IMG/VR virus record: IMGVR_UViG_3300047491_001507
From: a virus
DNA length: 64,000 nt
Direction: 5' to 3' (one strand)
This document shows positions 269 through 42,035 of this stretch, one piece after another. How positions within the stretch are numbered: position 1 is the first letter of the stretch; the number at the start of each line of letters is the position of its first letter. Position numbers and translations under genes: made by a program. The notes under the pieces are model-generated. The model searched no databases. It was given only the letters and a program-made list of their open reading frames with translations, and had not been told where the DNA came from.

Positions 269-326
269 AAACACTTTCCAAAAATTGTTTTTGTGGTACA
301 ATTTGGTATGATTTGTATTCAAAATT

Positions 327-398: not shown

Positions 399-404
399 TT
401 TTTC

Positions 405-479
405 GAGACCATAGCTCAAATTGGATAGAGCAACGGACTTTTAATCCGTAGGTTGCGGGTCCGAATCCCGCTGGTCTCA
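405..479 (+). tRNA. tRNA-Lys (anticodon UUU)
   Basis: Acceptor GAGACCA/TGGTCTC, D-arm GCTC..GAGC, anticodon stem ACGGA/TCCGT with loop CTTTTAA, T-arm GCGGG-TCCGAAT-CCCGC. Confidence 0.85.
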
Positions 480-3766: not shown

Positions 3767-3986
3767 CGAAATTATTCAAGATTTTTTAGAATGCACAAGA
3801 TCCTTAGATAAAGCAATTACCGATGCTGGCGGGAGTAAGCTGGATATAGATGATTTGGAAAGAATGACCGCATTGGAACTTATTTCTTTGATTTGTACCA
3901 ATGGGATTCGTTTTCATGTTAAGCAAACAGTGAGTGCCAAGGTATTGAAAAAAACAGATCTTATTATTGAAAGCTGTAGAACATGA
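3756..3986 (+). CDS. hypothetical protein
   Basis: 76-aa ORF; GGAGG SD. Confidence 0.45.
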   Translation: MTHNEIIQDFLECTRSLDKAITDAGGSKLDIDDLERMTALELISLICTNGIRFHVKQTVSAKVLKKTDLIIESCRT

Positions 3987-4522
3987 AAGAAGATATATTT
4001 GATATACCTGATGAAATCTCGATAGATTTGCCAAAATTTTGTAAATTAGGCGGTAAAAACTTCGCTATCAAGGTGCTTTCTCGCAAAGACGCTGCAAACT
4101 TTACATGTGAAGTGCCATGGGCTGCAATTAGTATTGCATCTTTTCCTAATGAATGGCCAAATTTATCGGAAGACAACAGAGTAAATCTGCTTCAGTTGTA
4201 CTTTTTCGATCAAACAGTGCCAGGGGAACATGCTTTTACAGAAAATCATGCTAAAGAAATTATTCGATTTGTCGGAGAAGCATGGGGAAAAATCGATTGT
4301 TTGTTAGTTCATTGCGAGGCAGGACTTTCCAGATCGCCTGGAGTAGCTGCTGCTATTGCTAGGATTTTTCAAGGTGAAGGTCAGGATGCAGCTTATTTTA
4401 AGCAGTATTATCCAAATTATCTGGTTTACAAGATTTTGTTGGAAACTTACTTTGGAAAAAATGTGAATTTACATCCACAAAATGAAGAAACATATTGGGA
4501 CGACAATGATTTTATAGGTTAG
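3983..4522 (+). CDS. Cys-based phosphatase of the dual-specificity/PTP superfamily (could be a protein or an RNA 5'-phosphatase)
   Basis: Active-site signature VHCEAGLSRSPGV, i.e. the HCx5R(S/T) P-loop of PTP/DUSP enzymes. Confidence 0.7.
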   Translation: MKEDIFDIPDEISIDLPKFCKLGGKNFAIKVLSRKDAANFTCEVPWAAISIASFPNEWPNLSEDNRVNLLQLYFFDQTVPGEHAFTENHAKEIIRFVGEAWGKIDCLLVHCEAGLSRSPGVAAAIARIFQGEGQDAAYFKQYYPNYLVYKILLETYFGKNVNLHPQNEETYWDDNDFIG

Positions 4523-4530
4523 GATGTACA

Positions 4531-4788
4531 ATGTATGATCCTGAATTAGCATTGCAAAAAGAACAAGATCTAATTAGAGATAAAGTCCTGTTGGAAAGAG
4601 TTTCCAAAAGACTTGGAAGTGATCATCCTTGGACAAAACGAATCAAGTTGATGACAGATATCTTTCAAACTTTGTCTCAAAAAGAAGATGATCTAGACAA
4701 CTGTTTTGATCCAGATGTACAATATCGTCTTGAAAACGAAATAGACGAACTAATTCGTATTGCACGAGAAGTATTAAAAAAGAGCTAA
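4531..4788 (+). CDS. hypothetical protein
   Basis: 85-aa ORF in the co-oriented gene chain. Confidence 0.5.
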   Translation: MYDPELALQKEQDLIRDKVLLERVSKRLGSDHPWTKRIKLMTDIFQTLSQKEDDLDNCFDPDVQYRLENEIDELIRIAREVLKKS

Positions 4789-4790
4789 AA

Positions 4791-5057
4791 ATGTTTACTA
4801 TAGAATGGATTACTCCTAATGAGGATATTGGCGTAAAAGGAATTGTTATTTGTGAAACGCAGTTTAAAGTAGAGACTCGTTTTTGTAATGCTGAAACCAT
4901 GAATGGATTTAAAGAAATTGGGCTTTTAATGATGCCAGAGGCAACACGGCTCAGTGTTTTGCTTGGTGATACAAGATTCATTTTGAAAGATGGAGTTGGG
5001 TTTAATTGGGAAATTTCAACTAAAAAAGAGAACTCGTTTTTCTTACAAAAGGATTAA
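4791..5057 (+). CDS. hypothetical protein, paralog of the C-terminal domain of 5060..5398
   Basis: GIVICETQFKVE...MPEATRLSV matches GIVICETPSTFKFE...LPEATRISV of the next gene. Confidence 0.5.
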   Translation: MFTIEWITPNEDIGVKGIVICETQFKVETRFCNAETMNGFKEIGLLMMPEATRLSVLLGDTRFILKDGVGFNWEISTKKENSFFLQKD

Positions 5058-5059
5058 AA

Positions 5060-5398
5060 ATGCTGACACGACGAAACGTTCTGAAATGGGCTGCTGGATT
5101 ATTTGCATCATTTCCTTTTATGAAAGGAATGACAAAGGAAGCAGTTTCTAATAAGAACTATGGCATGGCAGGAATTGTTATTTGCGAAACACCATCTACA
5201 TTTAAATTTGAGGTTCGCAAAGCTCAAACCATGAATGAGTTTACTAAAATTGGACATCAGATTTTGCCAGAAGCAACACGAATTAGTGTTGTATTTTCTG
5301 AAACAAGATATAATGCTCCTAACAGATATATTTTATACGTTTTATTGGATGGGCCTGGGACGGAATGGAAAGTTCTCAACGGAGTAGCCATATCATGA
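5060..5398 (+). CDS. putative Tat-secreted protein
   Basis: N-terminal TRRNVLKWAAGLFA resembles a twin-arginine signal; C-terminal domain paralogous to 4791..5057. Confidence 0.5.
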   Translation: MLTRRNVLKWAAGLFASFPFMKGMTKEAVSNKNYGMAGIVICETPSTFKFEVRKAQTMNEFTKIGHQILPEATRISVVFSETRYNAPNRYILYVLLDGPGTEWKVLNGVAIS

Positions 5399-6225
5399 GC
5401 AAAGACAGTTTAGGCGATAGAATGAAGTTTTTTGAACAGAGATTTTCCATCTCTGTCATGCCCAAAACCCCTATTCTTGCGAGAATAGATGGACGTTCCT
5501 TCCACAGCTTTACCAGAGGTTTGGAAAGACCTTACGACATTCGGCTTTCCAACCTAATGATAGCAACTACTAAATTTCTGGTTGCCGAAACCAATGCACG
5601 TTGTGGATATACACAAAGTGACGAGATTTCTTTGGTTTGGCTAACAGAAGACGATCATGAAGAGACGTTTTTTGGCGGAAAACTCTCTAAATTAACTTCT
5701 GTGATAGGCTCGTTAGCAACAGCATATTTCAATAAGCATTTATCTGCTTATATCCCAGAAAAGGCAGATGCGATGCCGGTTTTTGATAATCGGGTCTGGG
5801 AATTGCCTACTTACGAAGAAGTAGCAAATTATTTCATCTGGCGGGAACAGGATGCTGTAAGAAATAGCATTCAAATGTCGGCCAGATCAGTATTTAGTCA
5901 CAGTGAATGCCACAAAAAGAACACATCTCAATTACAAGAGATGTTGTTTTCTAAGGGAATTAACTGGAATGATTATCCTCGATTTTTCCGTCGAGGCACC
6001 TATATTCGTCGTAGGGTGGTGGAACGGGAATTTACTCCAGAAGAATTAGCTAATTTGCCACCGAAGCACAATGCTTTGAAAGACCCAAATCTTCCTATTC
6101 GTCGTACAGTGATTATGGAGGAGGACTTTCCGATTTTGACGAAGGTTCAGAATCGGTCTGGAGTAATTTTGTTTGGTGCTGATCCCATAGTACAAAACGA
6201 TGTATTGGTGATTGATGAAGCATGA
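5395..6225 (+). CDS. Thg1-like protein (tRNA-His guanylyltransferase family, 3'-5' nucleotidyltransferase)
   Basis: RIDGRSFHSFTRGL and GYTQSDEISLVW match conserved Thg1/TLP motifs; start set at the ATG at 5395 (ATGA overlap). Confidence 0.7.
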   Translation: MSKDSLGDRMKFFEQRFSISVMPKTPILARIDGRSFHSFTRGLERPYDIRLSNLMIATTKFLVAETNARCGYTQSDEISLVWLTEDDHEETFFGGKLSKLTSVIGSLATAYFNKHLSAYIPEKADAMPVFDNRVWELPTYEEVANYFIWREQDAVRNSIQMSARSVFSHSECHKKNTSQLQEMLFSKGINWNDYPRFFRRGTYIRRRVVEREFTPEELANLPPKHNALKDPNLPIRRTVIMEEDFPILTKVQNRSGVILFGADPIVQNDVLVIDEA

Positions 6226-9471: not shown

Positions 9472-10022
9472 TTATACCAATCTGGACTGATGTGGATGGC
9501 AAAGACTGGGAAGAATGCCTGTCTGATCTAAATCTTATTGATTTACTTATCGAGGCTTATGCTAAACAATTAAAGAATGATGTTTTTCAGTATTTACAGG
9601 ATCAAGGACATCAGCCTGTTCCCGTAATGCCACAACGTATGTCAGCGGACGTTGCTCAGTTTATTGGGAATAATGAGATTTTGGCTGAAGCCATCAAAGT
9701 CTGCAAGGAAAAAATCAAGATACAAAATGAAAAGGATGCATGTGAAGCTTGGGCTAGACATGAAGCATGGATTGATGGTCCATATAAGAAAAATTGTCAA
9801 AAAGCCCGCAATCTTGGCATACAAGCCAGAAAAGATGGATTGCCAAGGATTTGTAATATTACTGATGATCCTGAACTTTGCCATAACGGTACGATTTTCA
9901 GATGTTATGCTGATGCTTGGTGTTCTGGTTGGGATGGATTTACTATTCCTAAAGAATTTCTTCAAGTAGAACAAAATTTAGCCAAATTGCCAACAAGACC
10001 AATGACCGAAGAGGATTTCTAA
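9468..10022 (+). CDS. hypothetical Cys-rich protein
   Basis: ORF 9447..10022 trimmed to the ATG at 9468; TAATG junction with coaC. Confidence 0.5.
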   Translation: MIIPIWTDVDGKDWEECLSDLNLIDLLIEAYAKQLKNDVFQYLQDQGHQPVPVMPQRMSADVAQFIGNNEILAEAIKVCKEKIKIQNEKDACEAWARHEAWIDGPYKKNCQKARNLGIQARKDGLPRICNITDDPELCHNGTIFRCYADAWCSGWDGFTIPKEFLQVEQNLAKLPTRPMTEEDF

Positions 10023-11131
10023 TGTACAACATTCTTCTAGGCGTCACAGGTAGCGTAGCTTCCACCCTGACAGTAAAAATTGTTAAAGCTTTGCAAAGCT
10101 TAGGAGAAGTACGGGTTATTGCCACTAAATGTGGGGAACAATTCCTACGTCCCGAAGACAAAATTGAAATTGGCAAAGTTTATCTGGAAGAAGATGAATG
10201 GCCTGATTTCTATTGGGAAAAAGATGATCCCGTCATGCACATTGAACTGCGTAAGTGGGCAAGTGCTTTAGTAATTGCTCCATTATCCGCCAATACAATG
10301 GCAAAAATGGTTCATGGAATTTGCGATAATTTGCTAACAAGTGTTTTTCGTGCTTGGGATCACCAAAGACCCGTAATTGTGGCTCCTGCCATGAATTCCA
10401 TTATGTGGGAGAATAATCCTACAGGAAATCAAGTAGAAATTTTGAAGAATTGGGGTATTAAGGTTGTGTCTCCACAATCTAAAGTTTTAGCCTGTGGAGA
10501 CGAGGGCATAGGTGCTATGGCAGATATTTCTAAAATAGTGGAAGTAACTGCCGCTAGTTTGGTTTGGGATTTCCCGTTAAAAACTATCTATGGAGTTCCA
10601 ACTTGCAATGGAATTCCTATCAATCATCATCCAGGGGCTTTTGGGTTTCACCGAAAACACAATTTCCATACAGGCGTTGACCTTTATACTGAAGACAAGG
10701 CTTCAGTGAGTGCGGTAGAAAATGGCAGAATAGTAAAATTGGAGCAATTTACTGGCCCAGAAGTAGGTCATGAATGGTGGGAGAAAACCTGGGGATTGAT
10801 GATTGAAGGACCGTCTGGAGTAGTAAATTATGGCGAAATCAGCATGCCGCCTTCGTGGATTAATGTAGGTGATAAAGTCATCAAAGGACAATATATTGGT
10901 AGTGTGAAACGGGTTTTGTTTCCTGATCGGTTACGTCCTGATATCCCAGGTCATTCATGCAGTATGCTACATATAGAATTGTATAAGCATGGGGTTAGGG
11001 ATTTTACAGGTTGGGAAGATCCTGCCAAAAATCCTGATTTGCTTGATCCTACGCCTTATTTGATTAAGGCAAGATATGCACCAAATAAGACATTAACTTG
11101 GGATAATCCAGAGGGAAAGGAAGTAGGATAA
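10022..11131 (+). CDS. coaC: phosphopantothenoylcysteine decarboxylase (CoaC flavoprotein) fused to a C-terminal M23 (LytM-type) peptidase domain
   Basis: N-terminal half has LLGVTGSVAS, APAMNSIMW (PxMNxxMW) and VLACGDEGIGAM (the ACGD catalytic Cys of PPC-DC); C-terminal half has HTGVDLY...NGRIV and HSCSMLHIELY (HxxxD / HxH M23 motifs). Confidence 0.75.
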   Translation: MYNILLGVTGSVASTLTVKIVKALQSLGEVRVIATKCGEQFLRPEDKIEIGKVYLEEDEWPDFYWEKDDPVMHIELRKWASALVIAPLSANTMAKMVHGICDNLLTSVFRAWDHQRPVIVAPAMNSIMWENNPTGNQVEILKNWGIKVVSPQSKVLACGDEGIGAMADISKIVEVTAASLVWDFPLKTIYGVPTCNGIPINHHPGAFGFHRKHNFHTGVDLYTEDKASVSAVENGRIVKLEQFTGPEVGHEWWEKTWGLMIEGPSGVVNYGEISMPPSWINVGDKVIKGQYIGSVKRVLFPDRLRPDIPGHSCSMLHIELYKHGVRDFTGWEDPAKNPDLLDPTPYLIKARYAPNKTLTWDNPEGKEVG

Positions 11132-13278: not shown

Positions 13279-13593
13279 ATGGCTAAAAAAGTTGCGTCGA
13301 AGAAAGTTGCGAAGCGTTATGTCATCGTCCGCACCTACTCTGCTGGAGTATTTGCAGGCATTCTAGAATCTCGTTCAGGACGAGAAGTCGTGATGACAAA
13401 TGCCAGGAGAATTTGGTACTGGGAAGGTGCTGCTTCTCTTTCTGAATTGGCCCAGAGAGGCACGAGCAAGCCTGACAAGTGTAAGTTTCCCTGTCCAGTA
13501 GACAGAGTGGAACTTCTGGAAGCAATTGAAATTCTGGATTGCACTCCTGAGGCTCGTGCTAATATTGAGAGCGTGCCAGTTTGGTCTGCATGA
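13279..13593 (+). CDS. hypothetical protein on a GC-rich island
   Basis: AGGAG SD; local GC is clearly above that of the surroundings; a hairpin follows. Confidence 0.5.
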   Translation: MAKKVASKKVAKRYVIVRTYSAGVFAGILESRSGREVVMTNARRIWYWEGAASLSELAQRGTSKPDKCKFPCPVDRVELLEAIEILDCTPEARANIESVPVWSA

Positions 13594-13609
13594 TTTTCGG
13601 TTTGTCTCT

Positions 13610-13655
13610 GGCGGATTTGTTCTTTTTTGGGGGCAAATCCGCCACTTCGTTTTTG
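13610..13655 (+). terminator. possible intrinsic terminator hairpin
   Basis: GGCGGATTT...AAATCCGCC 9-bp stem followed by a TTTTT run downstream. Confidence 0.3.
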
Positions 13656-17476: not shown

Positions 17477-17926
17477 ATGTTTTCACGAAGACAATTTTTG
17501 ACAACAACAGCGTTGGGCGTAACATCCTTAGGCACAACATCTTTAGCGTCTACACAAAATTTGGATGATAAGACTTATCTCCGTAATAGAACTGTTTGGC
17601 TTGTTGTGGAGAGTTGCCAGGACATGGTTTTCACTGGGGCAATTGTTGGATATGACATTATAGATAAAATAATTAAAGCTACTACTATGTTTAATTCTGT
17701 CTATAAGCTTATCCGTTATCCTTTTGTTACTGATATTTCAAAGATAAAGTCCGAAAATAGTCAAAATGTATATTATCTTTGGGCTATGCATGATCTTAGT
17801 CTTCGTCCTGCATTAGTGCTGATGGATATGATGTCGGGAGATTTCCAATCAGTACTTGAACATGCTTTAAAAACATATCCAAAACAATTTGTTTTGATCC
17901 GTCGCTCTTGGAAGGAAAGGGAATGA
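17477..17926 (+). CDS. putative Tat-secreted protein (paralog of 30346..30786)
   Basis: MFSRRQFLTTTALGVTSLG is a twin-arginine signal (SRRxFL); C-terminal ALKTYPKQFVLIRRSW is shared with its paralog. Confidence 0.55.
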   Translation: MFSRRQFLTTTALGVTSLGTTSLASTQNLDDKTYLRNRTVWLVVESCQDMVFTGAIVGYDIIDKIIKATTMFNSVYKLIRYPFVTDISKIKSENSQNVYYLWAMHDLSLRPALVLMDMMSGDFQSVLEHALKTYPKQFVLIRRSWKERE

Positions 17927-18360
17927 TCAACAGACCTGTTGTTGGCGTAGCATTAATCGTTCGAAAAAATTATCAGATTTTGCTCCATAAGCGAATAGGA
18001 AAACATGCTCCTGGCACTTGGTCTTGCCCAGGTGGTCATCTGGAAATGTGGGAAGAATTTGCAGAAGCCGCTTTGAGAGAATTGAAAGAAGAAGCTGGTC
18101 CCGTAGAAGTTACGGAACCAGTTTTACTTACTGTGTGTAATACCATGTTTAAGTCCGAAGACAAACATAGTATTACCATCTTTTTGGTATCTGATTGGAT
18201 AAGCGGAGAGCCAAAAGTTACTGAGCCAGATAAATGTGAGGAATGGCTATGGTTTGATTATGACAATCTTCCTGAGCCACTTATGTTGGGCATTCAGAAG
18301 ATTAAGGAGCAGAAATTATTGAAAGTGGTTATGACTAAACCATATGATTTGTTAGTTTAG
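17923..18360 (+). CDS. Nudix hydrolase
   Basis: Nudix box GGHLEMWEEFAEAALRELKEEAG (Gx5Ex7REUxEExGU). Confidence 0.75.
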   Translation: MINRPVVGVALIVRKNYQILLHKRIGKHAPGTWSCPGGHLEMWEEFAEAALRELKEEAGPVEVTEPVLLTVCNTMFKSEDKHSITIFLVSDWISGEPKVTEPDKCEEWLWFDYDNLPEPLMLGIQKIKEQKLLKVVMTKPYDLLV

Positions 18361-19270: not shown

Positions 19271-20344
19271 ATGGTTAAGATGCGTAGTTTGATGTATGTC
19301 TTTTTGATGGCAAGTATGGTCTTTTTGACCGATACTCCACAAATTTTTGCAAAAGGCGGATCGGGCGGTCGATCTTTCTCCTCAGGAGGTAGTCGATCTT
19401 TCTCCTCAGGTCGATCATCGTTTTCTTCAGGAAGTAGTGGTCGATCATTTTCTTCAGGAAGTAGTGGTCGATCATCGTTTTCTTCAGGAAGTAGTGGTCG
19501 ATCATCGTTTTCTTCAGGAAGTAGTGGTCGATCATCGTTTTCTTCAGGAAGTAAGCCATCGGGTAGTAGTGGAAAATCATTTTCTTCAGGAAGTGGAAAA
19601 TCATTTTCTTCAGGTAGTTCAAGCTCGACAAAAAGTTCTGGCAGCAAGACATATTCTTCTAGTTCAGGATCATCTGCCAGCAATAGCAGAAAACCAATTA
19701 GCAGTGGATTTAATAGCTCTATGAGCAATTCTGCAAAACGTGCAGAAAGTCAGAAAATATTTAAAGCAGCGACGACGCCAAAATCCACTTATACCTCCAA
19801 AGGTTCAGACGGTAAAGTTGTTCAACAGACAATTAAACCAGACTCACCTTCGGTTCAAACGGTGCGAAAATACGTTACCCATGAGCGATATGTCACCTAT
19901 GATAACCGTGCTAGCACTTTTTATGGTGGATTTTATGGGTCGCCAGTTTATTATCACGACCCATTTTCGCCATTTTTGATGGGCTGGTTGTTTTCGGATG
20001 CCATTAATACTCACCAGCGGGCATTATGGATGTACAATCATCAGAGTGACATGGATGCAGCAAGATATAAAGAGATGCTTGCCAAGGATGCAAAACTTCA
20101 GGCAGAAATTGATCAGCTAAAAGCCAAAAATACGCCTCAAGATGCAAGCTATGTTCCACCTGAAATGGCTAGTAATCCAGATTTGATGTATAATAAAGAA
20201 TTCGTTAATGCCTCGTACAATCCTGTAGAAGTGCCAAATGATGCCCAAGAAAGAGCCAACATAGCAGGCACAATCATATTCTGGGCAATTATTCTATTTT
20301 TCTTGGGTGGTATGGCTTATCTCTTCTTTATTAAGGAATATTGA
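19271..20344 (+). CDS. secreted/membrane-anchored Ser/Gly-rich tandem-repeat protein
   Basis: Signal peptide; about 9 repeats of SGSSGRSSFSS, encoded by a ~33-bp DNA tandem repeat at 19390-19560; C-terminal TM helix. Confidence 0.6.
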   Translation: MVKMRSLMYVFLMASMVFLTDTPQIFAKGGSGGRSFSSGGSRSFSSGRSSFSSGSSGRSFSSGSSGRSSFSSGSSGRSSFSSGSSGRSSFSSGSKPSGSSGKSFSSGSGKSFSSGSSSSTKSSGSKTYSSSSGSSASNSRKPISSGFNSSMSNSAKRAESQKIFKAATTPKSTYTSKGSDGKVVQQTIKPDSPSVQTVRKYVTHERYVTYDNRASTFYGGFYGSPVYYHDPFSPFLMGWLFSDAINTHQRALWMYNHQSDMDAARYKEMLAKDAKLQAEIDQLKAKNTPQDASYVPPEMASNPDLMYNKEFVNASYNPVEVPNDAQERANIAGTIIFWAIILFFLGGMAYLFFIKEY

Positions 20345-21030
20345 AAATGAAGTTGTATGAAGTTCTTCTGAGGAAGATTGGTTTGTGGAAAGATCCTGCT
20401 GATAAACCAGAGAAACCACAAGAAGATATGATTTATAATCCAATTGGATGTAAAGTCGGGGATGTATTAAAGATAGGTGTTTTGGATCTGAGAGATTGCC
20501 GCTTCACAGTGAGAGAAATTCTGGAATATTCGATTGTCCTTTGTGGCAATAAACATCGGATGGTCGATTATATTTTGGATATAAATCATGCTGACAAGCG
20601 TAAGCTTCGTATTGCTCCCGATCCAGACAGTAAAAGTCAAGCAATTTATGGAGCTTTGTTACTATCATTATATGATGAATTTGTTTATAATGAAGATCTA
20701 CACGCTGTAGTTCAAGATGATACAAAAAAGCTCGTTATTGATGACGAGACCAACCCTGATAATGCTATTCATGAAGAATTTTGGCGAGTAAATGATGTAG
20801 GTTCTTCTTATAAAGCCGATGTTAAAAAACTTGTTGATATTGATGGCGATGGCAAAATAAGCGAAGAAGAGGTAAAAGCATCTTCAGTTGAATTTTGGGA
20901 TTATTCCCGAATGACTAACGTAGAGGGTGTGGAAATTGAAGAGTTTATGATAGTTGAGATGGATGAAACGGGATATTTTACTCTGTGGCGAGGTTCAGAA
21001 GTTAACCCTGAACGGATTAGTGTATTTTAG
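20341..21030 (+). CDS. EF-hand-containing protein
   Basis: DIDGDGKISEEE is a canonical EF-hand Ca-binding loop. Confidence 0.55.
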   Translation: MKMKLYEVLLRKIGLWKDPADKPEKPQEDMIYNPIGCKVGDVLKIGVLDLRDCRFTVREILEYSIVLCGNKHRMVDYILDINHADKRKLRIAPDPDSKSQAIYGALLLSLYDEFVYNEDLHAVVQDDTKKLVIDDETNPDNAIHEEFWRVNDVGSSYKADVKKLVDIDGDGKISEEEVKASSVEFWDYSRMTNVEGVEIEEFMIVEMDETGYFTLWRGSEVNPERISVF

Positions 21031-21054
21031 TTCTTTAACTTGAGAGAGGGAATT

Positions 21055-21804
21055 ATGTTTACGACAATTTTGATTGCTGTGGTTGTGGTGGTTTGTTTGG
21101 CTGCGATTAGTCCTCCTGCTCGTCGTTTTTTCAAGGCAATTGGACTATGGGGTGGGGCACAAGCGGATAAAGGAGCAGAGGCAGTTCTGAATGCTGATCC
21201 TCTTGGCGTCCTAAAAACCCAAATCAAAAATGCTGCTGAAAATGGCAAGCAAGCTAATGCTGTGGTAGTGGCTGCTGCTAAACAGTTGGTTTCTTTGGAA
21301 AATCAAATTGCCGATGACCTAAAGGAACAGCAACGACTTACCACTCGTATTGAATCGGTTTTGGCTAAAGGCGATCCCAATAAGAATGCCGCAAAGTACG
21401 CTGCTGATTTGGCTCGGGTTGAAGAAAATCTGAAAGCCAATGAAGAACAGAAGGCAATCGCTCAACAGCAATATGATGACAATCTGAAGTTGGTTGAACG
21501 ATTTGAACGGGAGATTCAAGAAGCCCGAAAGGATGCGGCTGCTCTTGGGGCTCAATTGCAGCAATCTGAGGCAGAAAAGAATTTGAATCAAATGTCTGCT
21601 GCCCTCAAGGATCGGCTTAATGTTGGCGATTTGGCTGCGGCACGCCAGAGAGTTAAGGACCAAATTAATGAGAATCGAGGAGCCTCCAAGGCATCTCGTG
21701 ATCTAAATCGAGTTGCTCTGGCTGAAGAAGAAGATGAGGAATTGGAGCGATCTGCTGCGGCAGAAGCTGTTCTGGCTAGGTTCCAAAAACCCGTAACAGA
21801 ATAA
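21055..21804 (+). CDS. PspA/IM30/Vipp1-family protein (ESCRT-III-like membrane remodelling) with hydrophobic N-terminus
   Basis: Long coiled-coil with PspA-like segments (...LENQIADDLKEQQRLTTRIE...); GAGGGAA SD; higher-GC codon usage than the surroundings. Confidence 0.65.
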   Translation: MFTTILIAVVVVVCLAAISPPARRFFKAIGLWGGAQADKGAEAVLNADPLGVLKTQIKNAAENGKQANAVVVAAAKQLVSLENQIADDLKEQQRLTTRIESVLAKGDPNKNAAKYAADLARVEENLKANEEQKAIAQQQYDDNLKLVERFEREIQEARKDAAALGAQLQQSEAEKNLNQMSAALKDRLNVGDLAAARQRVKDQINENRGASKASRDLNRVALAEEEDEELERSAAAEAVLARFQKPVTE

Positions 21805-21816
21805 GGTCTTTATAAA

Positions 21817-21856
21817 CCCTACCCCAGAAGTGGGGTAGGGTTTTTTTATTTTTTGG
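21817..21856 (+). terminator. rho-independent terminator
   Basis: CCCTACCCC-agaagt-GGGGTAGGG 9-bp GC stem followed by TTTTTTTATTTTTT. Confidence 0.75.
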
Positions 21857-21863
21857 TGAATAA

Positions 21864-22148
21864 ATGAGATGTTTTGATTTTTGTGCTAATATGATGCTTC
21901 GCTGGAAGAATGGTCAATTAAAATCGAGATTAGCTGTAGTAGAAGCTAAAATTGAAGATTTGCAAGCAGAAAATGTGAAATTGAAAGAACAGGTGCAAAA
22001 ATTGCAGTGGGGGGAGATCACAGGAACTATCGTTGCAACCGCTGGTGATAGAGTTCCCGCAGAAATTGAATACAAAGATTGTAAAGGTAATGTGATTGGG
22101 TATTGGGCGTATGGCTATTTTCATCCAGGCTATCCCTTCCAAGGTTGA
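21864..22148 (+). CDS. hypothetical protein
   Basis: 94-aa ORF with a coiled-coil N-terminus. Confidence 0.45.
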   Translation: MRCFDFCANMMLRWKNGQLKSRLAVVEAKIEDLQAENVKLKEQVQKLQWGEITGTIVATAGDRVPAEIEYKDCKGNVIGYWAYGYFHPGYPFQG

Positions 22149-25120: not shown

Positions 25121-26881
25121 ATGGAATTTACAAGTGCATCTGAAGCTCTTAAGTATGTGATGAAAAATGGAACAGGCGGTCGTGATGGAACTGACGCACT
25201 CAATGAAATTGCAACAAGTGCAGAATGTTCTTATCTTTGTGCTGCGAATGATTTTAAGGGACGTTTTCCTTTGGGAGAACCAGCAATTGCCACCGATGCA
25301 TATTATGCTTATATGTATGCCAATCATGTAATTAAAGGCAGATTTCCTGAAGCCGAAGCAACAATTGCTAAAAGTCCAATCTACGCTTTTTATTATACCA
25401 GAGATATAATTAAGCGTAGATTCCCTGAATGTGAAAAAGCAATGGTGTCTAATTCGTACTATTTAGGCCAGTATGTTGATTTTTTGGGATTGGATATTGC
25501 AATTGTGGAAAAACCAACAATGACTGCCAAGGATGTAATTAAGGGCAGATTTCGAGAGGAGGTAATTGCACAGGACGCACAATATGCTTATATGTATGCC
25601 AATGAAGTAATTCATGGTCGTTTTGCTGAAGGCGAAGCAGCAATTGCCACCGATGCACAATGTGCTTATATGTATGCCAATGAAGTAATAAAAGGGCGTT
25701 TTGCTGAAGGTGAAGCAGCAATTGCTCAAATTGCCAATTATTCTTATATGTATGCTAAAAATGTAATCAAAGCTCGTTGGCCTGAGGGCGAAAAAGCAAT
25801 TGCACAGCACGGATATCTTTCTTATTTGTATGCCAAGGATGTAATAAAAGGTAGATTTCCTGCTGGAGAACCGGCAATTCTTAAAGGTGATTCAGAATGG
25901 ATAAAAGGATATATAAAAACTTTCAAATTAAATCTTGTTAGTAGTTTTCTAGAAGATGATTGTTCTTTCGAGGAACAGCAGATTGTTGCAGAAAAACCAC
26001 GTTTCACAACTGCTGAAGAAGCTTATAGTTATGCTTTGAGTAAAAACCAGCCATCTCCTGAGTGTGAAGCGGTAATTGCTCAAGATGCCAAATGGTCGCA
26101 TTTGTATGCTTATGATATTATTCATGGACGATTTCCCGCTGGAGAACCAGTAATTGCTCAAAGTGCCAGTTATTCTTACGCATATGCAATAAATGTAATA
26201 AAAGGGCGTTTTGCTGAAGGTGAACCAGCAATTGCTAAAAATACTGATCATGCTTACAAATATGCCAAATATGTAATAAAAGGGCGTTGGCCAGAAGGCG
26301 AACCAGCTATTGCTAAAAATGTATTATGTTCCTTTGAATACGCTAGAGACGTAATTCATGATCGTTTTCCTGCTGGTGAACCAATCATTATGGGAAACCT
26401 CTGGTATTCTAGGGAATATCGAAACGTTTTCAAATTAAAGCTTGGTTTTCTAGAAGACGAACAGCAGATCCCAGCCGAAGCTTTTTCATCTCCTGAAAAA
26501 GCATATAGGCATGCTCGTGAAGTAGCTAAAGTACGTTGTCCGAAATTAGAGCCAATAATCAAAGAAGATGCGGAATGGGCTTACAAATACGCCAATGAAG
26601 TAATAAAAGGGCGTTTTGCTGAAGGCGAAGCAGCAATTGCCAAAAGTCCACTATATGCATGTTATTATGCTTGCGATGTACTCAATGGACCATTTCCAGC
26701 AGGAGAGCAGGCAATTCTTGGAAGTGTGGAATACATCTACAAATATGCCTTGAATGCACTAAAGGGGCGTTGGAGAAAAGCAGAGCCAATGATTGTTAAG
26801 GATCGTTATTTTGCACTAGGCTATGCTCGATTTTTCAATTTGGAAGTTACCACTGGTTTTACAGAGAAAGAATCGAAATGA
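25121..26881 (+). CDS. 33-aa repeat family protein (about 16 repeats)
   Basis: Iterated ...AIAxDAxYAYMYANEVIKGRFAEGE... units. Confidence 0.65.
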   Translation: MEFTSASEALKYVMKNGTGGRDGTDALNEIATSAECSYLCAANDFKGRFPLGEPAIATDAYYAYMYANHVIKGRFPEAEATIAKSPIYAFYYTRDIIKRRFPECEKAMVSNSYYLGQYVDFLGLDIAIVEKPTMTAKDVIKGRFREEVIAQDAQYAYMYANEVIHGRFAEGEAAIATDAQCAYMYANEVIKGRFAEGEAAIAQIANYSYMYAKNVIKARWPEGEKAIAQHGYLSYLYAKDVIKGRFPAGEPAILKGDSEWIKGYIKTFKLNLVSSFLEDDCSFEEQQIVAEKPRFTTAEEAYSYALSKNQPSPECEAVIAQDAKWSHLYAYDIIHGRFPAGEPVIAQSASYSYAYAINVIKGRFAEGEPAIAKNTDHAYKYAKYVIKGRWPEGEPAIAKNVLCSFEYARDVIHDRFPAGEPIIMGNLWYSREYRNVFKLKLGFLEDEQQIPAEAFSSPEKAYRHAREVAKVRCPKLEPIIKEDAEWAYKYANEVIKGRFAEGEAAIAKSPLYACYYACDVLNGPFPAGEQAILGSVEYIYKYALNALKGRWRKAEPMIVKDRYFALGYARFFNLEVTTGFTEKESK

Positions 26882-27272: not shown

Positions 27273-29504
27273 ATGAACGTGAATCCTGAAATAGTACGAA
27301 AAGCTTACAATTGTGCTGTGAGTTCTGACAATCGTTGTCCTGAATGGGAAGCAATCATTGCTACTGATGCATCTCACTCTTATAAATATGCTCTTAATCA
27401 TCTTGAAGGTCGTCGTTTTCTAGAAGGCGAAGCGGTAATTGCAAAAGACGCACAATGTGCCTTTTTTTATGCTAGAGATGTGATTGGTGGACGCTGGCCT
27501 GAAGCAGAAGAGGCAATTGCTACAGATGTACAATATGCCTTTTATTATGCTCGTAATGTGATTAAGGGTAGATTTCCAGAAGGCGAAAAGGCAATTGCCA
27601 CTGATGGTCATCTTGCTTTTTTATATGCTAAATTCACAGGAATGGATATTACTTTTGTTGAAAAACTTAAGTTTGCTAATCCAGCAGATGCTTATCGTTA
27701 TGCTTTCAATCATCCAGATAAGCGTTATCCTGAAGCGGAAGAGGTAATAGTAACAAATGCATATGTATCATATCTTTATGTCTGCAATGTTCTGAAAAGG
27801 CGTTGGGCAGAAGGTGAAGCGGTAATTGCAAAAAACGCACAAAATGCCTTTTTTTATGCTAGAGATGTGATTGGCGGACGCTGGCCTGAAGCAGAAGAGG
27901 CAATTGCTACAGATGCAAAATACGCCTGTTTGTATGCTATGGATGTAATTAAAGGGCGTTTTGCTGAAGGCGAACCAGCTATTGCTCAGAGTGCAGATTG
28001 GGCTTGGCTTTATGCTAAGAGCGTAATTAAGAGAAGATTTCCTGAAGCAGAAAAAGCAATTGCTCAGGTTAAATCTATTAATAGGGAATATTGTGATAAA
28101 TTCCCGTTGAAATTTGATAGTCCATCAAGTGCTTATCGTTATGCTATTGCCCACCCAAAGCAATGTTGTCCTGAAGTAGAAGATAAAATAGCAGAAAATG
28201 CCTACATGTCATATCTTTATGCTCTTCATGTTTTAAAATCTCGATTTCTTAAGGGAGAGAAAGCAATTGCTCAAGCAGCACCAACTGCTTATATTTATGC
28301 CAAAGACATTATTAAAGGTAGGTTTCCTGAGGCAGAACCTGCTATTGCTAAAGATGCATATTATGCATTTCTTTATGCTTTGCAGATAATTAAAGGACGT
28401 TGGCCCGAAGCAGAGCCAACAATTATCAAAAATGCGGAATGGGCTTATCGTTATGCCGAAAAAATAATAAAGGCACGTTGGCCTGAGGCAGAAGCAGTAA
28501 TTGCTAAAAGCTCACCTTGGGCTTATAATTATGCCGTAGATATGATTAAGGATCGTTGGCCTGAGGCAGAATCTACGATCCTAGCATCAGCAGATGCATC
28601 CAAATATGCCAATAACTTTAAATTAACAATTACGCTGGAAAAACCGAAATTTACAACGCCAGTAGAAGCTTATGGCTATGCTAGAGATATAGTGAAAGGT
28701 CGTTGTCCTGAAGCAGAGCCGATGATTGCTCAGGATGCACAGTTTGCTGCTCTTTATGCCAAGAGCATAATTCAGGGTCGTTGGCCTGAAGGCGAAAAGG
28801 TGATTGCTCAGGATGCACATTGGGCTTGTTTTTATGCTATAAATGTAATCAAAGCTCGTTGGCCTGAGGGCGAAAAAGCAATTGCTCAGGATGCACATTA
28901 TGCTTATAGATATATTAAATATGTGATAAAAGATCGTTGGCCTGAAGCAGAGCCGATGATTGCTCAGGATGCATATTACGCTTGTTTTTATGCTATGAAT
29001 ACAATCAAAAGCCGTTGGCCTGAAGGTGAAGAGGCAATTGCTACAGATTCGTATCTTTACAAGAAATATTGCAAGGAATTTTCAATAGCAGAAGGTTATA
29101 ACCCGAAATTAATGACTCCAGTAGAAGCTTATAGTTACGCTAAAGATGTGTTAAAAGGTCGTTGTTCCGAATGCGAAGCAACAATTATTCAAAGTCCAAT
29201 TTTTGCATATCGTTATGCTCAAGATGTGTTAAAAGGTCGCTGGATTGAGGCAGAACCAGTAATCGCTACTGATCCTGGCATTGCATATCTCTATGCAGAC
29301 AAGATAATTAGAGGAAGATTTCCTGAGGCAGAAGTAGAAATTTCACGATCTGTATTTGCCTCCAAATATGCTGCTCTTTTTGGATTGGAATTTGCTGGTT
29401 TTAAACCAGAATTGACAAAAAGTAAAGAATCTGTTACTTTGGATGAAATTCTGACAAGACTTGAAAATTTGGAATCAAAATTGCACAATATGTTTTTATG
29501 CTAA
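27273..29504 (+). CDS. 33-aa repeat family protein (about 20 repeats) with C-terminal coiled coil
   Basis: Iterated VIKGRWPEAEExIA units over 743 aa. Confidence 0.65.
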   Translation: MNVNPEIVRKAYNCAVSSDNRCPEWEAIIATDASHSYKYALNHLEGRRFLEGEAVIAKDAQCAFFYARDVIGGRWPEAEEAIATDVQYAFYYARNVIKGRFPEGEKAIATDGHLAFLYAKFTGMDITFVEKLKFANPADAYRYAFNHPDKRYPEAEEVIVTNAYVSYLYVCNVLKRRWAEGEAVIAKNAQNAFFYARDVIGGRWPEAEEAIATDAKYACLYAMDVIKGRFAEGEPAIAQSADWAWLYAKSVIKRRFPEAEKAIAQVKSINREYCDKFPLKFDSPSSAYRYAIAHPKQCCPEVEDKIAENAYMSYLYALHVLKSRFLKGEKAIAQAAPTAYIYAKDIIKGRFPEAEPAIAKDAYYAFLYALQIIKGRWPEAEPTIIKNAEWAYRYAEKIIKARWPEAEAVIAKSSPWAYNYAVDMIKDRWPEAESTILASADASKYANNFKLTITLEKPKFTTPVEAYGYARDIVKGRCPEAEPMIAQDAQFAALYAKSIIQGRWPEGEKVIAQDAHWACFYAINVIKARWPEGEKAIAQDAHYAYRYIKYVIKDRWPEAEPMIAQDAYYACFYAMNTIKSRWPEGEEAIATDSYLYKKYCKEFSIAEGYNPKLMTPVEAYSYAKDVLKGRCSECEATIIQSPIFAYRYAQDVLKGRWIEAEPVIATDPGIAYLYADKIIRGRFPEAEVEISRSVFASKYAALFGLEFAGFKPELTKSKESVTLDEILTRLENLESKLHNMFLC

Positions 29505-31049: not shown

Positions 31050-31217
31050 ATGTGTTTATTTCATAAATGGGATAATAATGATTGTCGCTGGCCTAGTTTA
31101 AGCGTATCACTTGAACCAGAAAATAAAGAAAGAACCTGCTTGAAATGTGGCGAAAAACAGGAATGGATACAATATCCTCTGCATATCGGTTTTATGACTG
31201 ATCAGCCTTGGGGTGTT
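31050..31217 (+). CDS. zinc-ribbon-like N-terminal portion of the 160-codon ORF 31050..31532 (no stop before the tRNA-like element)
   Basis: CRWPS...CLKCGEKQEW; the reading frame continues through the tRNA-like sequence, so the gene boundaries are uncertain. Confidence 0.3.
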
Positions 31218-31233
31218 TGGAGAAGAAAAATAA

Positions 31234-31308
31234 GCCAGTGTAGCTCAAATGGAAGAGTCTCGTGTCATTGTGGCATGGGAGATGTTGGTTCGAATCCAAC
31301 CACTGGCT
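31234..31308 (+). tRNA. tRNA-like element (possible degenerate tRNA or tRNA remnant); anticodon arm non-canonical
   Basis: Exact 7-bp acceptor GCCAGTG/CACTGGC, D-arm TAGCTCAAATGGAAGAGT and T-arm GTTGG-TTCGAAT-CCAAC at correct tRNA spacing (75 nt), but the middle 25 nt fold into an 8-bp hairpin with a 5-nt loop. Confidence 0.45.
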
Positions 31309-31319
31309 TGGAGGAAAAA

Positions 31320-31532
31320 ATGAAAAAATTTGATTCAAAAGAGGAATTAGACTTATTTTTGAGATCTAAACATCGTCCTTATGATGTTGATACCCATTGG
31401 CAAATGGAAGATATGGAATATCAGTTTCCCATTTGGACAGAATTTTTAGGGACCACCCATCTGGGGGCTGCATTCAAAGTAAGAAATCGTGAACAAATGT
31501 TGGCTCTTAAACAAATTTTTATGGATTTATAA
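31320..31532 (+). CDS. hypothetical protein (C-terminal portion of ORF 31050..31532, or an independent gene)
   Basis: ATG at 31320 preceded by GGAGGAAAAAA; in frame with the upstream ORF. Confidence 0.4.
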   Translation: MKKFDSKEELDLFLRSKHRPYDVDTHWQMEDMEYQFPIWTEFLGTTHLGAAFKVRNREQMLALKQIFMDL

Positions 31533-32707: not shown

Positions 32708-34048
32708 ATGAAATTTAAATCACTACAAGAAGCTTATAATCATGTTCTTGTTTATGGGCCTTCTCCTGAAGCAGAATCTGTCATTGCTACAAATTCAGCA
32801 TGGTCTTATGTTTATGCTCGTGATATAATTAAAGGCAGATTCCCTTTGGGCGAGGCAGCGATTGCCACAGATACAATCAGATCTTATGAATACGCTCTCA
32901 ATGTGCTTAAAGGTAGATTTCCTGAAGGCGAGAAAATAATTGCCACAAATCCACGGTGGTCATATGAATATGCTCTCAATGTGATTAAAGGCAGATTTCC
33001 TGAAGGCGAACCGGAAATTGCTGCAAGTAGTGTTTATGCTTGGCTTTATTCTAGAAGTGTTGGCTTGCTCAAACCGGAATTGAAATTTATGAAACCAGCA
33101 GAAGCTTACGATCATGCTAAAGATGTGGTAAAAGGTCGTTGTCCTGAAGCAGAAGTAGAAATTATTAAAAGTGCAGAATATTCTTATTATTATGCAACAA
33201 ATGTTTTGAAGTCTCGCTTTCCTGAAGGCGAAGCAACAATTGCTCAGGATGCACAATGGTCTTATCATTATGCTCTTTATGTTTTGAATGGGCGATTTCC
33301 GTTGGGCGAAGCAGTAATTATTCAAGATCCATTTTATGCATGTTACTATGCAGTAAATGTTATGAAAGATCGTTGGCCTGAAGCAGAGGCGACGATTTCA
33401 AGGTCTACTAACCTTGTCAGTAAATATGCAGATCAGTTTAAATTGGCGGTGACACTTGCTGACACACCGTTGAAATTTGCAACAATAAAAGAAGCTTATA
33501 GTTATGCTCAGAATCATCCAAGAGAACATTGTCCTGAAGCAGAAAAGATGATCGCTCAAGATGCTTCAACTTCTTATTTGTATGCTAGATATGTGATTAG
33601 AAAGCGTTTTCCAGAAGGCGAAGTAACAATTGCAAGAAACCCCTCTTCTGCTTATTATTATGCCAACGAAGTGATTGGTGGACGTTGGCCTGAATGTGAA
33701 GCAGAACTTGCTAAAAATGTACAATATGCTTATCTTTATGTTGTAAATATAATCAAGGGTCGTTGGTTTGAAGCTGAAGCAGCGATTGTTCAAAACCCAG
33801 AATATGCTTGCCTATATGCGATAAATGTTCTAAAGGCTCGTTGGCCTGAAGCAGAAGAAGGAATTTTGAAACATTCTGATCCTGTTCATGCTTATAAATA
33901 TGCTGAACATTTTAAATTGACATTCTCTAGTTTCATGCCGAAACCGAAATCCGAATTGACACTAAGTTCTGCAATTGATAAAATTGACACCATAGAAAAA
34001 CAAATAGCAAGTTTGGAAAAAAGACTTTCTAATTTGGAAGAACAATAA
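32708..34048 (+). CDS. 33-aa repeat family protein with C-terminal coiled coil
   Basis: AAGGAG SD before the ATG at 32708 (the track start at 32684 is a GTG); iterated VIKGRFPEGE units. Confidence 0.65.
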   Translation: MKFKSLQEAYNHVLVYGPSPEAESVIATNSAWSYVYARDIIKGRFPLGEAAIATDTIRSYEYALNVLKGRFPEGEKIIATNPRWSYEYALNVIKGRFPEGEPEIAASSVYAWLYSRSVGLLKPELKFMKPAEAYDHAKDVVKGRCPEAEVEIIKSAEYSYYYATNVLKSRFPEGEATIAQDAQWSYHYALYVLNGRFPLGEAVIIQDPFYACYYAVNVMKDRWPEAEATISRSTNLVSKYADQFKLAVTLADTPLKFATIKEAYSYAQNHPREHCPEAEKMIAQDASTSYLYARYVIRKRFPEGEVTIARNPSSAYYYANEVIGGRWPECEAELAKNVQYAYLYVVNIIKGRWFEAEAAIVQNPEYACLYAINVLKARWPEAEEGILKHSDPVHAYKYAEHFKLTFSSFMPKPKSELTLSSAIDKIDTIEKQIASLEKRLSNLEEQ

Positions 34049-39706: not shown

Positions 39707-39735
39707 TCGCCGTTCCTTGGAGCGGCGATTGTTAT
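39707..39735. terminator. possible bidirectional terminator at the convergent strand switch
   Basis: TCGCCG-ttccttggag-CGGCGA hairpin flanked by T-runs on both strands, between the last + gene and the first - gene. Confidence 0.35.
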
Positions 39736-41213
39736 TTTAATACCACAAATGTTACATCTTTGCCCTGCATGTCCTCTTGAGCATCCTCATAACTGTTACA
39801 AATCGGCTTTCCTGCTCGATTTAAAGAAGTGTTGATAAAACACTCATGTCCAGTTAATTTGCCGTATTCAACCAAAAGTTCATGTAGCCAAGGGTCTTTT
39901 TCTTTATAAACGACCTGTGGCCTTGATGAAAAATCACGATGCACTATGGCTGGTAAATATTGCTTGGCCATATCAGTACAAATACAACGATATTGCATGT
40001 ATTCGCCTTTGGGACCAATGAAATATTGATCAAAAGCTTCTGATGTCACTACAGGAGCCAAAGGACGATAAAACTCTCTCCCTTTTATGCCTTCTGAAAC
40101 AATTTTGAGGTTTTCTGCCTTGGCAGAAGCGAAAATAGATCTAAATCCCAAAGCTCTTGGCCCTGCTTCGCTTTTACCCCTCATTAAAGCTACAATTTTG
40201 CCCCTAGCAATGAGTTTGGCGATCTCTTGGGGTTCCTGTGCCCCTATTTGAGGCAAAGGCGTCTGAAGGGCATTAATGGCCGCAGAATTGATTTTGGGCC
40301 ACTTCTTATAAACATGGAAATAAGCAAGAGCAGCAGCACCTAAAGCAAGACCACTATCATTAATTGGCGGTCCAAAGACCAAGTCTTGAGTCATATTGTA
40401 AATCCTGGTGTTTAGCTCCAAAGCTAATGCAGTACCTCCACCAACAACCACTCCACGATTGCTGCCAAATTTTTCTATGTTTTCTTTGATATTGACCCAG
40501 ATTTGCTCAATAAGGAACTTGTAAAAACCAGCAATAAACTCCATATCGTTTGAATTTGGATTTTTGAACTCAATATAACACGGAACTATACTGTTCCAAT
40601 CATAAGAAACATTCAATAACTTCATGACATTTTTTGCATCCCACTCAATTGGGGGGATGTGTGGCAAATAACCAGCCAATCCCATGGCTTTTCCTGCCGA
40701 ATTATGTCCTAGAAGAGTGCAAATTGGAACACTTGAAGGGACAGGAAGGGCATCTTCTATTTTGTAAAAGCCTTTTTTGTTTATTACGCCTACAAGAGAA
40801 GCTTTATTGGGTTGAGTAGGATCGATGCCATATCCACAGCCATCATAGGCTAAAAAAAGCCTTTCTTTGTCATCTGGTCGATAAAGCCAAGAAGAAACAG
40901 CATGTGCTAGATGATGATCTACGACAAGATTGAATTTGGAGTCAGGAAAAAGATGGTGAGGAGATTTTAGGTATCTAATTAAAGATGGATCGTATTTAGG
41001 AGTTGGATAATTCTCTTCGCCTAAAGAAGTGATAGCAGTAACATAGTTTCCGTTTAATAAATCTGGAAAAGCGTTGAGAATGGGATCGGGGGTATGGTAA
41101 TGGTTTTTATTTCTTGGAAAGAATCTTTCAGCTTGAGCGTAAAATTCTAACTCCGAATCGTTAAAAATAGCAATGGAAACGTCATGTTTACCGTGATATC
41201 CTATAAATCTCAT
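39732..41213 (-). CDS. carbamoyltransferase of the NodU/CmcH/TobZ family
   Basis: VVDHHLAHAVSSWLY (the DHHLAHAASAF motif) and C-terminal GPRALGFRSIFAS (GPRALGNRSIL motif). Confidence 0.75.
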   Translation of the reverse strand: MRFIGYHGKHDVSIAIFNDSELEFYAQAERFFPRNKNHYHTPDPILNAFPDLLNGNYVTAITSLGEENYPTPKYDPSLIRYLKSPHHLFPDSKFNLVVDHHLAHAVSSWLYRPDDKERLFLAYDGCGYGIDPTQPNKASLVGVINKKGFYKIEDALPVPSSVPICTLLGHNSAGKAMGLAGYLPHIPPIEWDAKNVMKLLNVSYDWNSIVPCYIEFKNPNSNDMEFIAGFYKFLIEQIWVNIKENIEKFGSNRGVVVGGGTALALELNTRIYNMTQDLVFGPPINDSGLALGAAALAYFHVYKKWPKINSAAINALQTPLPQIGAQEPQEIAKLIARGKIVALMRGKSEAGPRALGFRSIFASAKAENLKIVSEGIKGREFYRPLAPVVTSEAFDQYFIGPKGEYMQYRCICTDMAKQYLPAIVHRDFSSRPQVVYKEKDPWLHELLVEYGKLTGHECFINTSLNRAGKPICNSYEDAQEDMQGKDVTFVVLK

Positions 41214-42019: not shown

Positions 42020-42035
42020 ATGTAATATATAGAGT

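Follow-up and report, generated by a model that had tools for sequence, protein, structure and literature searches.

What is a gene for a PspA-like protein doing in the genome of a virus, and did it come there alone? The question is raised by a 64,000-nucleotide stretch of DNA (hereafter the window) from IMG/VR virus record IMGVR_UViG_3300047491_001507, one of whose open reading frames (ORFs) encodes a 249-residue protein resembling PspA and Vipp1 (IM30). The initial annotation took this gene for a moron, a single acquired gene standing apart from its neighbors. Profile and fold evidence place the ORF, as a remote and divergent relative, in the PspA/Vipp1 (IM30) branch of the ESCRT-III superfamily. 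With X and Y ahead of it, the gene closes a trio, X-Y-PspA, which is conserved among huge-phage contigs, and a hydrophobic helix precedes its PspA domain; we therefore refer to its product as anchored PspA. Our confidence in this identity and architecture is high. Taken as a whole, the locus is best explained by an X-Y-PspA operon whose last gene encodes an anchored PspA that would act as a membrane-stabilizing or membrane-remodeling polymer, an account that we consider reasonably probable.

The PspA-family ORF is real; a Shine-Dalgarno-like sequence (GAGAGAGGGA), a good ribosome-binding site, lies just 5' of its start codon (Table 1). The single protein sequence matched the Pfam family PspA_IM30 (PF04012) with E = 6.2e-8 and 32.9 bits, the curated cut-off being 33.9 bits. 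The same family was matched by 20 of 29 close homologs and by 35 of the 40 subfamily members that make up a wider alignment (A5), with a best value of E = 1.2e-15. When the A5 profile was compared with the sequences of the PDB, it retrieved nine Vipp1/PspA sequences over the full length (E = 1e-9 to 1e-6). The next matches were generic coiled coils and began at E = 0.005, which puts more than three orders of magnitude in E-value between the two groups. An AlphaFold2 model is all-helical, with a hairpin formed by helices H49-104 and H112-163 (predicted local distance difference test, pLDDT, 84-93) followed by three shorter helices; the arrangement is that of the ESCRT-III fold, a long α1/α2-3 hairpin and then shorter helices, though the accompanying Foldseek statistics are weak. 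The nine best Foldseek matches of the model in the PDB were all Vipp1, with E only 0.01-0.1 and TM scores of 0.41-0.55, and its best match in BFVD was a 'PspA/IM30 family protein' of the Acinetobacter jumbo phage ME3. The PspA/Vipp1, ESCRT-III-like identity first proposed for the ORF is thus borne out, though the relationship is remote.

The strongly hydrophobic N-terminal segment noted in the initial annotation is also real. Its mean Kyte-Doolittle hydropathy is 3.02 over the 17 residues MFTTILIAVVVVVCLAAI, and the hydrophobic N terminus is kept in all 29 close homologs. In the same homologs, the motif P21-x-R23-R24 behind the helix is invariant or nearly so, as is K27. There are no charged residues on the N-terminal side of the helix, and R23, R24, and K27 lie on its C-terminal side. 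Because the positive charges come only after the helix, the positive-inside rule predicts that the N terminus is outside and the PspA domain in the cytoplasm.

In PspA, Vipp1, and ESCRT-III polymers, helix α0 (H0) is the membrane anchor (PMC7619361). In the profile alignment, family positions from 23 onward pair with Vipp1 residues from 3 onward, and the family's 'naDP' pairs with Vipp1 'EDPEK'; the residues concerned, D48 and P49, are nearly invariant among the close homologs. It follows from these pairings that an α0-like segment, aligned to Vipp1 residues 3-24, has been retained and that the transmembrane helix is an addition in front of it. The segment ARRFFKAIGLWGGAQA/D resembles a twin-arginine translocation (Tat) signal (RRxFLK, an h-region, and AxA) and was rejected as such: it lies behind the hydrophobic helix rather than ahead of it, is charged and amphipathic in the wider family, and aligns with Vipp1 α0. 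Two antisense ORFs within the gene (21319-21663 and 21027-21248, minus strand) were also discarded, as their 'conservation' in tblastn merely reflects the conserved sense strand.

Anchored PspA belongs to a small subfamily, separate from the canonical family, whose profile barely detects it. A hidden Markov model search of 1.84 billion representative proteins (E <= 0.001) returned 269 matches only. Of the full-length members, 142 of 164 have an N-terminal hydrophobic helix before α0. The remainder are mostly the weakest matches and start with a canonical amphipathic α0 (MGIFG..., MILGKLW...), so the subfamily grades into ordinary PspA. By comparison, a survey of ~2,500 PspA homologs found the PspA_IM30 domain alone in >98% of them, and no transmembrane fusion is among the exceptions given (PMC11237479). 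Neither the region (blastn) nor PspA and Y (tblastn) had a match among 50,697 deposited phage genomes (INPHARED), and patterns for the close PspA family found no relative in 185,579 species-representative genomes (GTDB). With E. coli PspA as the query, two of the 50,697 deposited phage records were matched. Genes like pspA have precedent in phages but are rare.

In every larger contig that bears a homolog, the gene is preceded by the same two genes in the same order, X (~330-390 residues) and Y (~210-235 residues). These contigs are L002 (316 kb), L003 (119 kb), L005 (48 kb), L006 (673 kb), L008 (603 kb), L009 (a 340-kb IMG/VR viral genome), L012 (70 kb), and L021; across many huge-phage contigs, the trio is conserved at 48% to 100% identity. 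Even two distant PspA-like proteins (~25-30% identity) have a Y homolog immediately upstream (hhalign probability 99.9-100%).

X is conserved in L002, L003, L005, L006, L008, L009, and L012, and its profile also matches L019, L021, L022, L010, and L013. It has no Pfam or PHROG family. It begins with a signal peptide or a hydrophobic segment; a long low-complexity region rich in Ser and Gly, a conserved aromatic-rich domain with a short coiled coil, and a C-terminal transmembrane helix follow in this order, after which a cytoplasmic tail of three residues (KEY) remains. X is predicted to be an exported Ser/Gly-rich protein anchored by its C-terminal helix, with Y in the cytoplasm beneath it. 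The SSGRSSFSSG-type region of X is encoded by tandem repeats. In L002 (8091-9223) and L008 (6885-7999), X was called as two ORFs that break in the repeat region, which suggests repeat-length variation, frameshifts, or assembly errors.

Y lacks a transmembrane segment and is modeled as a two-lobed protein of the cytoplasm, rich in β-strands, whose N-terminal helix, MKLYEVLLRKIGLW, is nearly invariant. None of its 139 homologs carries a Pfam domain or a name, and no known fold was matched. The element of Y with a recognizable counterpart is the loop DIDGDGKISEEE, which fits the EF-hand consensus for Ca2+ binding; in the model it is a single loop between β-strands and not a paired helix-loop-helix. 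Of 42 Y homologs, 31 have the motif D-x-[DN]-x-[DNS]-G-x-[ILV]-x3-[DE], and in the other 11 it is cleanly deleted. X and Y are fused in L010 and L013, where the X domain is followed by the transmembrane helix, a short linker, and the Y domain, the N-terminal helix of Y having been dropped. The existence of this natural fusion speaks for X and Y acting as a single transmembrane unit, and it agrees with the predicted topology, in which X is outside and Y inside.

Relatives of the trio share a wider block of genes: ribosomal protein S21, a ribbon-helix-helix (RHH) protein, peptide deformylase, and, further on, IDO and X-Y-PspA, with dCMP deaminase, a thiamine pyrophosphate (TPP) enzyme, IF3, and DnaJ beyond another interval. 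The gene content of this block is typical of huge phages. The flanking genes of the relatives' block have no counterpart anywhere in the 64-kb window, which has X, Y, and PspA only. Two of the trio contigs come from bacterial metagenome-assembled genomes (MAGs). L012 (GCA_003962895.1, a 'Neisseriaceae bacterium' MAG) has S21, deformylase, X-Y-PspA, IF3, and DnaJ, and L021 (a 'Chloracidobacterium sp.' MAG) has IDO-X-Y-PspA together with a GIY-YIG/NUMOD3 homing endonuclease; both are probably of phage origin and ended up in bacterial bins. The window itself carries dense, mostly small, strand-blocked ORFs and three tRNA genes, and has strong PHROG matches to phrog_24834 (E = 3e-91), tRNA-His guanylyltransferase (E = 6e-83), and a Nol-like carbamoyltransferase (E = 2e-71). 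These matches and the 340-kb IMG/VR relative uphold the phage-borne setting originally claimed for the gene. The ORF at 31050-31532 may not be a real gene, since the Gln tRNA lies inside it.

A scan of species-representative genomes for Y yielded five MAG contigs. X and Y occur in L022 (Gemmataceae MAG, 156-2118, 70% GC) and L019 (Planctomycetales MAG, 3934-5693, 60% GC), where their neighbors are the planctomycete hallmark families DUF1549, DUF1553, DUF1501, and DUF1552. In L013 (158-1486), the fused X-Y lies in a high-GC, cellular-looking context of planctomycete type. No PspA-like gene was detected beside X-Y in the planctomycete-type contigs, within the stretches fetched; X-Y thus exists in cells as well and can be separated from anchored PspA.

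A strong intrinsic terminator directly 3' of the gene had been claimed, and we confirm it. The hairpin starts nine bases past the stop codon; its stem is 13 bp long and contains the 9-bp G+C core described before, and the T-run is T7-A-T6. Only one other long-stem plus-strand hairpin occurs between 12000 and 31000. In L003, L005, L006, and L008, a strong hairpin with a T-run, different in sequence, occupies the same position 3' of the PspA gene. Upstream, the spacers are short: 11 nucleotides (nt) between the preceding ORF and X, 2 nt between X and Y, and 24 nt between Y and PspA. Sites of σ70 type occurred at chance level (60 found versus 57.5 +/- 6.5 expected; phage-specific promoters lay outside the scan), and no strong plus-strand terminator was found between 13644 and 21814. 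Because there is no room for a private promoter, and because no strong terminator intervenes over this distance, the terminator would end a multi-gene unit: X-Y-PspA and, probably, a longer upstream transcription unit with it. The other strong plus-strand terminator of the region (16-bp stem, 13609-13644) lies directly 3' of a gene for a 104-residue DUF6948 protein (Pfam E = 6e-33), which ranks second in GC content among the ORFs of the window (0.479). This gene and its terminator, together at 13279-13644, resemble a second compact unit and likely mark where the long transcription unit closed by the PspA terminator begins. Just past the PspA terminator, a 94-residue ORF (21864-22148) encodes a leucine-zipper-like coiled coil with non-significant matches to GIT_CC (E = 1e-4) and to an Rz-like spanin PHROG (E = 0.089); it is not kept beside the trio in relatives.

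Table 1. Coordinates of the X-Y-PspA locus and of other features in the 64,000-nucleotide window
Feature	Position	Strand	Remarks
Gene X	19271..20344	+	357 aa; from translation; conserved in relatives
Tandem repeats coding the SSGRSSFSSG-type region of X	19409..19618	+	Tandem Repeats Finder: 30-nt unit x 4.9, 24-nt unit x 2.1
Gene Y	20347..21030	+	227 aa; starts 2 nt after the X stop codon
EF-hand-like Ca2+ loop in Y, DIDGDGKISEEE	20836..20871	+	sub-threshold Pfam EF-hand_1 match, 17.4 versus 25.4 bits
PspA/Vipp1-family gene	21055..21804	+	249 aa; ATG at 21055, TAA at 21802-21804
N-terminal transmembrane helix, FTTILIAVVVVVCLAAIS	21058..21111	+	residues 2-19; hydropathy and conservation
α0-equivalent region, SPPARRFFKAIGLWGGAQ..., then DP motif (D48, P49) opening helix α1	21112..21192	+	family-profile alignment to Vipp1
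Pfam PspA_IM30 match	21163..21789	+	residues 37-245; profile positions 14-216 of 220
Intrinsic terminator	21814..21854	+	13-bp stem AAACCCTACCCCA / TGGGGTAGGGTTT (21814-21843), loop GAAG, T7-A-T6 tail
tRNA genes Arg(TCT) and Lys(TTT)	326-479		in tandem
tRNA gene Gln(TTG)	31233-31309		
Thg1-like tRNA-His guanylyltransferase	5365-6225		auxiliary gene
Flavoprotein fused to M23-peptidase-like region	10022-11131		auxiliary gene
NUDIX hydrolase	17923-18360		auxiliary gene
Large paralogous-looking proteins	25121-26881, 27273-29504, 32708-34048		586, 743, and 446 aa; repeated short motifs matching Phage_FRD3, HTH_35, phrog_28193
Auxiliary genes: carbamoyltransferase with HD protein and radical-SAM protein	39732-43019		
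Second radical-SAM-like protein	47353-48225		auxiliary gene; 51% identity with a protein of this kind from Bacteroides phage Versailles
Seven small ORFs (79-120 aa)	57011-58767	-	GC 0.43-0.46 versus window mean of 0.375; five scanned, none with a Pfam match

How might such a trio work? PspA, Vipp1, and LiaH form polymers on membranes under stress, prevent protons from leaking, and are able to reshape bilayers; they contact the membrane through α0, and accessory membrane proteins (PspB/C, LiaI, YdjG/H/I) see to their recruitment or regulation (PMC8281802, PMC8581546, PMC11237479). In the model that we propose, membrane topology, polymerization, contact between Y and PspA, Ca2+ responsiveness, and the benefit to the phage all enter as predictions. 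The transmembrane helix ahead of α0 would hold the polymer-forming domain permanently at the inner membrane of the host, on its cytoplasmic side. With the anchor built in, recruitment becomes unnecessary and control must act on polymerization. The X/Y unit is the obvious candidate for a regulator or nucleator, because it would span the membrane and thereby place Y beside anchored PspA. X and Y may thus form a transmembrane sensor or adaptor that nucleates or regulates polymerization of anchored PspA on the inner membrane, and the loop of Y could, in most members, confer a response to ion influx. The resulting polymer would keep the inner membrane sealed and energized, or reshape it locally, during the long infection by a huge phage. 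As a functional model, we regard this as an even bet.

Several results weigh against the account of an anchored, polymer-forming PspA in a phage operon. The Pfam score of the single sequence falls about 1 bit short of the curated cut-off. A profile of the 29 close homologs retrieved no PspA from the PDB sequences, only keratin-type coiled coils at E >= 0.14, and in hhalign it gave a probability of 1.5% against one E. coli PspA (an approximate query sequence); we attribute both failures to the narrow diversity of that profile, and the wider alignment A5 resolved the question. Confidence in the AlphaFold2 model is moderate (pLDDT 74 overall), and the Foldseek statistics for its Vipp1 matches are poor, as given above. 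Sensing of Ca2+ cannot be essential, since 11 of 42 Y homologs are missing the loop, and the planctomycete contigs with X-Y alone imply that X and Y can work without a neighboring anchored PspA. Finally, there are no phage structural genes within the window. The results with the close-family profile and the Foldseek E-values would also suit a generic coiled-coil membrane protein whose likeness to PspA is compositional, for example an i-spanin-like lysis protein or a scaffold. Superficially, an N-terminal helix followed by a long coiled coil does recall Rz-type i-spanins, and the 94-residue ORF downstream has its non-significant Rz-like match. We nevertheless consider this explanation very unlikely. 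The PspA_IM30/Vipp1 match is co-linear, extends over the full length, includes the DP motif, and is separated from generic coiled coils by the gap noted above, and the subfamily merges gradually into proteins whose α0 is that of canonical PspA. As regards an i-spanin, the positive charges that follow the helix predict a cytoplasmic coiled coil, which is the opposite topology; there is no lipoprotein o-spanin partner, X and Y are not lysis-like, and the PspA-family protein has no spanin match among the PHROGs. A third interpretation takes the window to be non-viral and assigns the trio to an envelope system of cells, for example of Planctomycetes; alternatively, the module would benefit the bacterium, as in lysogenic conversion, and not the lytic cycle. 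X-Y beside planctomycete hallmark families at 60-70% GC, the X-Y fusion of L013 in its cellular-looking context, and the binning of several trio contigs into MAGs are what it has in its favor. The contigs with the full trio, however, share the huge-phage-type block, show no core genes of cells within the stretches seen, and include a viral genome from IMG/VR. Dense, small, unidirectional ORFs, strong PHROG matches, and tRNAs mark the window, and even the MAG contig L021 combines the phage-type IDO-X-Y-PspA block with a homing endonuclease. We judge this interpretation unlikely.

In its classic form, the moron proposal with which the locus was introduced holds that one host-derived pspA was recently inserted as a promoter-gene-terminator unit, with foreign GC content, and would protect the envelope of the host; countering envelope-targeting defenses had been put forward as another possible role. 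The GC content of the PspA gene is 0.463 versus a gene mean of 0.376 for the 120 window ORFs (z = 2.3, rank 3), and in this sense the gene is indeed GC-richer than its neighbors. The more specific claim, that its codon usage is clearly GC-richer, is only weakly true. At the first codon position (GC1), the gene has 0.664 and ranks first of the 120 ORFs; at the second (GC2, 0.376), it is average; and at the third (GC3, 0.348), it ranks twelfth with z = 1.25. Amino-acid composition together with the codon usage of the window predicts a GC content of 0.423, which leaves a residual of ~0.04 in total GC (z ~2) and a corrected GC3 z of 1.6. Moreover, in all six relatives examined, as in the window, the PspA homolog exceeds the local GC by 0.06-0.10, although the backgrounds of those six are 0.31, 0.35, 0.42, 0.42, 0.45, and 0.52. 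As the excess is mainly in GC1 and an equal offset recurs across backgrounds of 31-52% GC, it is a property of an Ala/Glu/Gln/Leu-rich protein and not a trace of foreign origin. The 'island' is thus a lesson for annotation practice: what looks like horizontal transfer here is an effect of amino-acid composition.

The strong terminator expected of a moron is there, but the 24-nt spacer upstream leaves no room for a promoter, σ70-like sites are at chance, and the gene belongs to a conserved three-gene unit. Nor is the gene recent: against its nearest relatives (82-88% amino-acid identity), the nonsynonymous divergence (dN) is 0.10-0.13, the synonymous divergence (dS) is saturated, and dN/dS is ~0.07, which indicates an old divergence under strong purifying selection; the overall range of dN/dS is 0.07-0.2, again with dS saturated. 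The close-family patterns, as reported above, found no relative in the species-representative genomes. We therefore consider a classic moron very unlikely. The one remaining point in its favor, that the neighborhood of the trio in the window is unrelated to that in its relatives, tells of something else. The trio is present in all relatives examined, and since only X, Y, and PspA are shared, the unrelated flanks point to relocation or exchange of the whole cassette and not to insertion of the PspA gene alone. What survives of the moron idea is a three-gene cassette that has been relocated or exchanged between large phage genomes over evolutionary time.

Where does the X-Y-PspA module stand among known systems? 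Like PspA, Vipp1 (IM30), and LiaH of PF04012, which have ~220-260 residues, the window protein is all-helical, with the long α1/α2-3 hairpin, the DP motif, and an α0-equivalent; unlike the canonical members, it has the extra N-terminal transmembrane helix. Its partners also set it apart from classical Psp and Lia systems, as neither X nor Y has a Pfam domain of PspB/PspC/PspF, LiaI/LiaF, PspM/N, Band-7, CesT/Tir, or TPM. There is a parallel in gene content with YjfJ-type pspA operons (PMC11237479), in which a pspA gene is likewise accompanied by genes for an envelope protein, exported or lipoprotein-like, and for an intracellular β-rich protein; there, the partners are a DUF1190 lipoprotein and an intracellular β-strand-rich DUF4178 protein (Ravi et al. 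2024, PMC11237479). By sequence, no link emerged: X and Y (42 members of the latter) have no Pfam match to DUF4178, DUF2491, or DUF1190 at E <= 1, and there are no CesT/Tir chaperone, DUF350, or polyamine genes with the window trio.

PspA-family genes are also found in other phage genomes of >200 kb, namely those of the Acinetobacter jumbo phage vB_AbaM_ME3 (ME3_238) and of the 'Jug' gut jumbo phages. In the latter, a pspA-like gene lies in a highly transcribed operon, adjoining the Ca2+-binding-type stress protein TerD (PMC12880540). ME3_238 was ruled out as a close relative and belongs to a canonical, unrelated lineage. It has a canonical amphipathic α0 (MNFFKLLKKFF...) without a transmembrane helix and is not detected by the profile of the window subfamily, and the ME3 phage has no Y homolog. 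What is new here is the domain architecture, with a transmembrane helix, α0, and the PspA domain in one chain, and the conserved set of partners; the conserved X-Y-PspA module is the main interest of the locus.

In eukaryotes, Ca2+-triggered membrane repair relies on the EF-hand protein ALG-2, which recruits ESCRT-III to wounds. The phage module resembles this system, by analogy only, in that a polymer of the ESCRT-III superfamily is encoded with a protein bearing an EF-hand-type Ca2+ loop. Y is not homologous to ALG-2; it has a single loop in a β-rich fold, and about a quarter of its homologs lack the loop. A bolder proposal, to which we give little credence, would make X-Y-PspA an undescribed, self-contained ESCRT-III-like membrane machine of huge phages and some Planctomycetes. 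An X/Y unit, Ca2+-tuned in most members through the loop of Y, would trigger polymerization of the permanently anchored PspA, and the polymer would reseal or insulate the host membrane, including against depolarizing effectors of abortive infection, or would sculpt membrane for phage replication or assembly. If true, prokaryotes and viruses would have their own counterpart of Ca2+-triggered ESCRT-III repair.

For the family, the subfamily matters through its anchor. PspA, Vipp1, and ESCRT-III proteins are normally soluble and reach the membrane via α0 or separate anchors; a built-in anchor bypasses recruitment, and the subfamily offers a natural 'always on the membrane' variant in which to study the control of polymers. 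X and Y, which have no known family or fold and are linked by a natural fusion, are candidate new regulators of bacterial ESCRT-III-like polymers. Planctomycetes are noted for elaborate internal membranes, and the presence of X-Y among them points to a possible cellular origin and to a second study system. For the phages themselves, a module kept under strong purifying selection in genomes of 300-670 kb suggests that huge phages do need to manage the inner membrane of the host in the course of infection.

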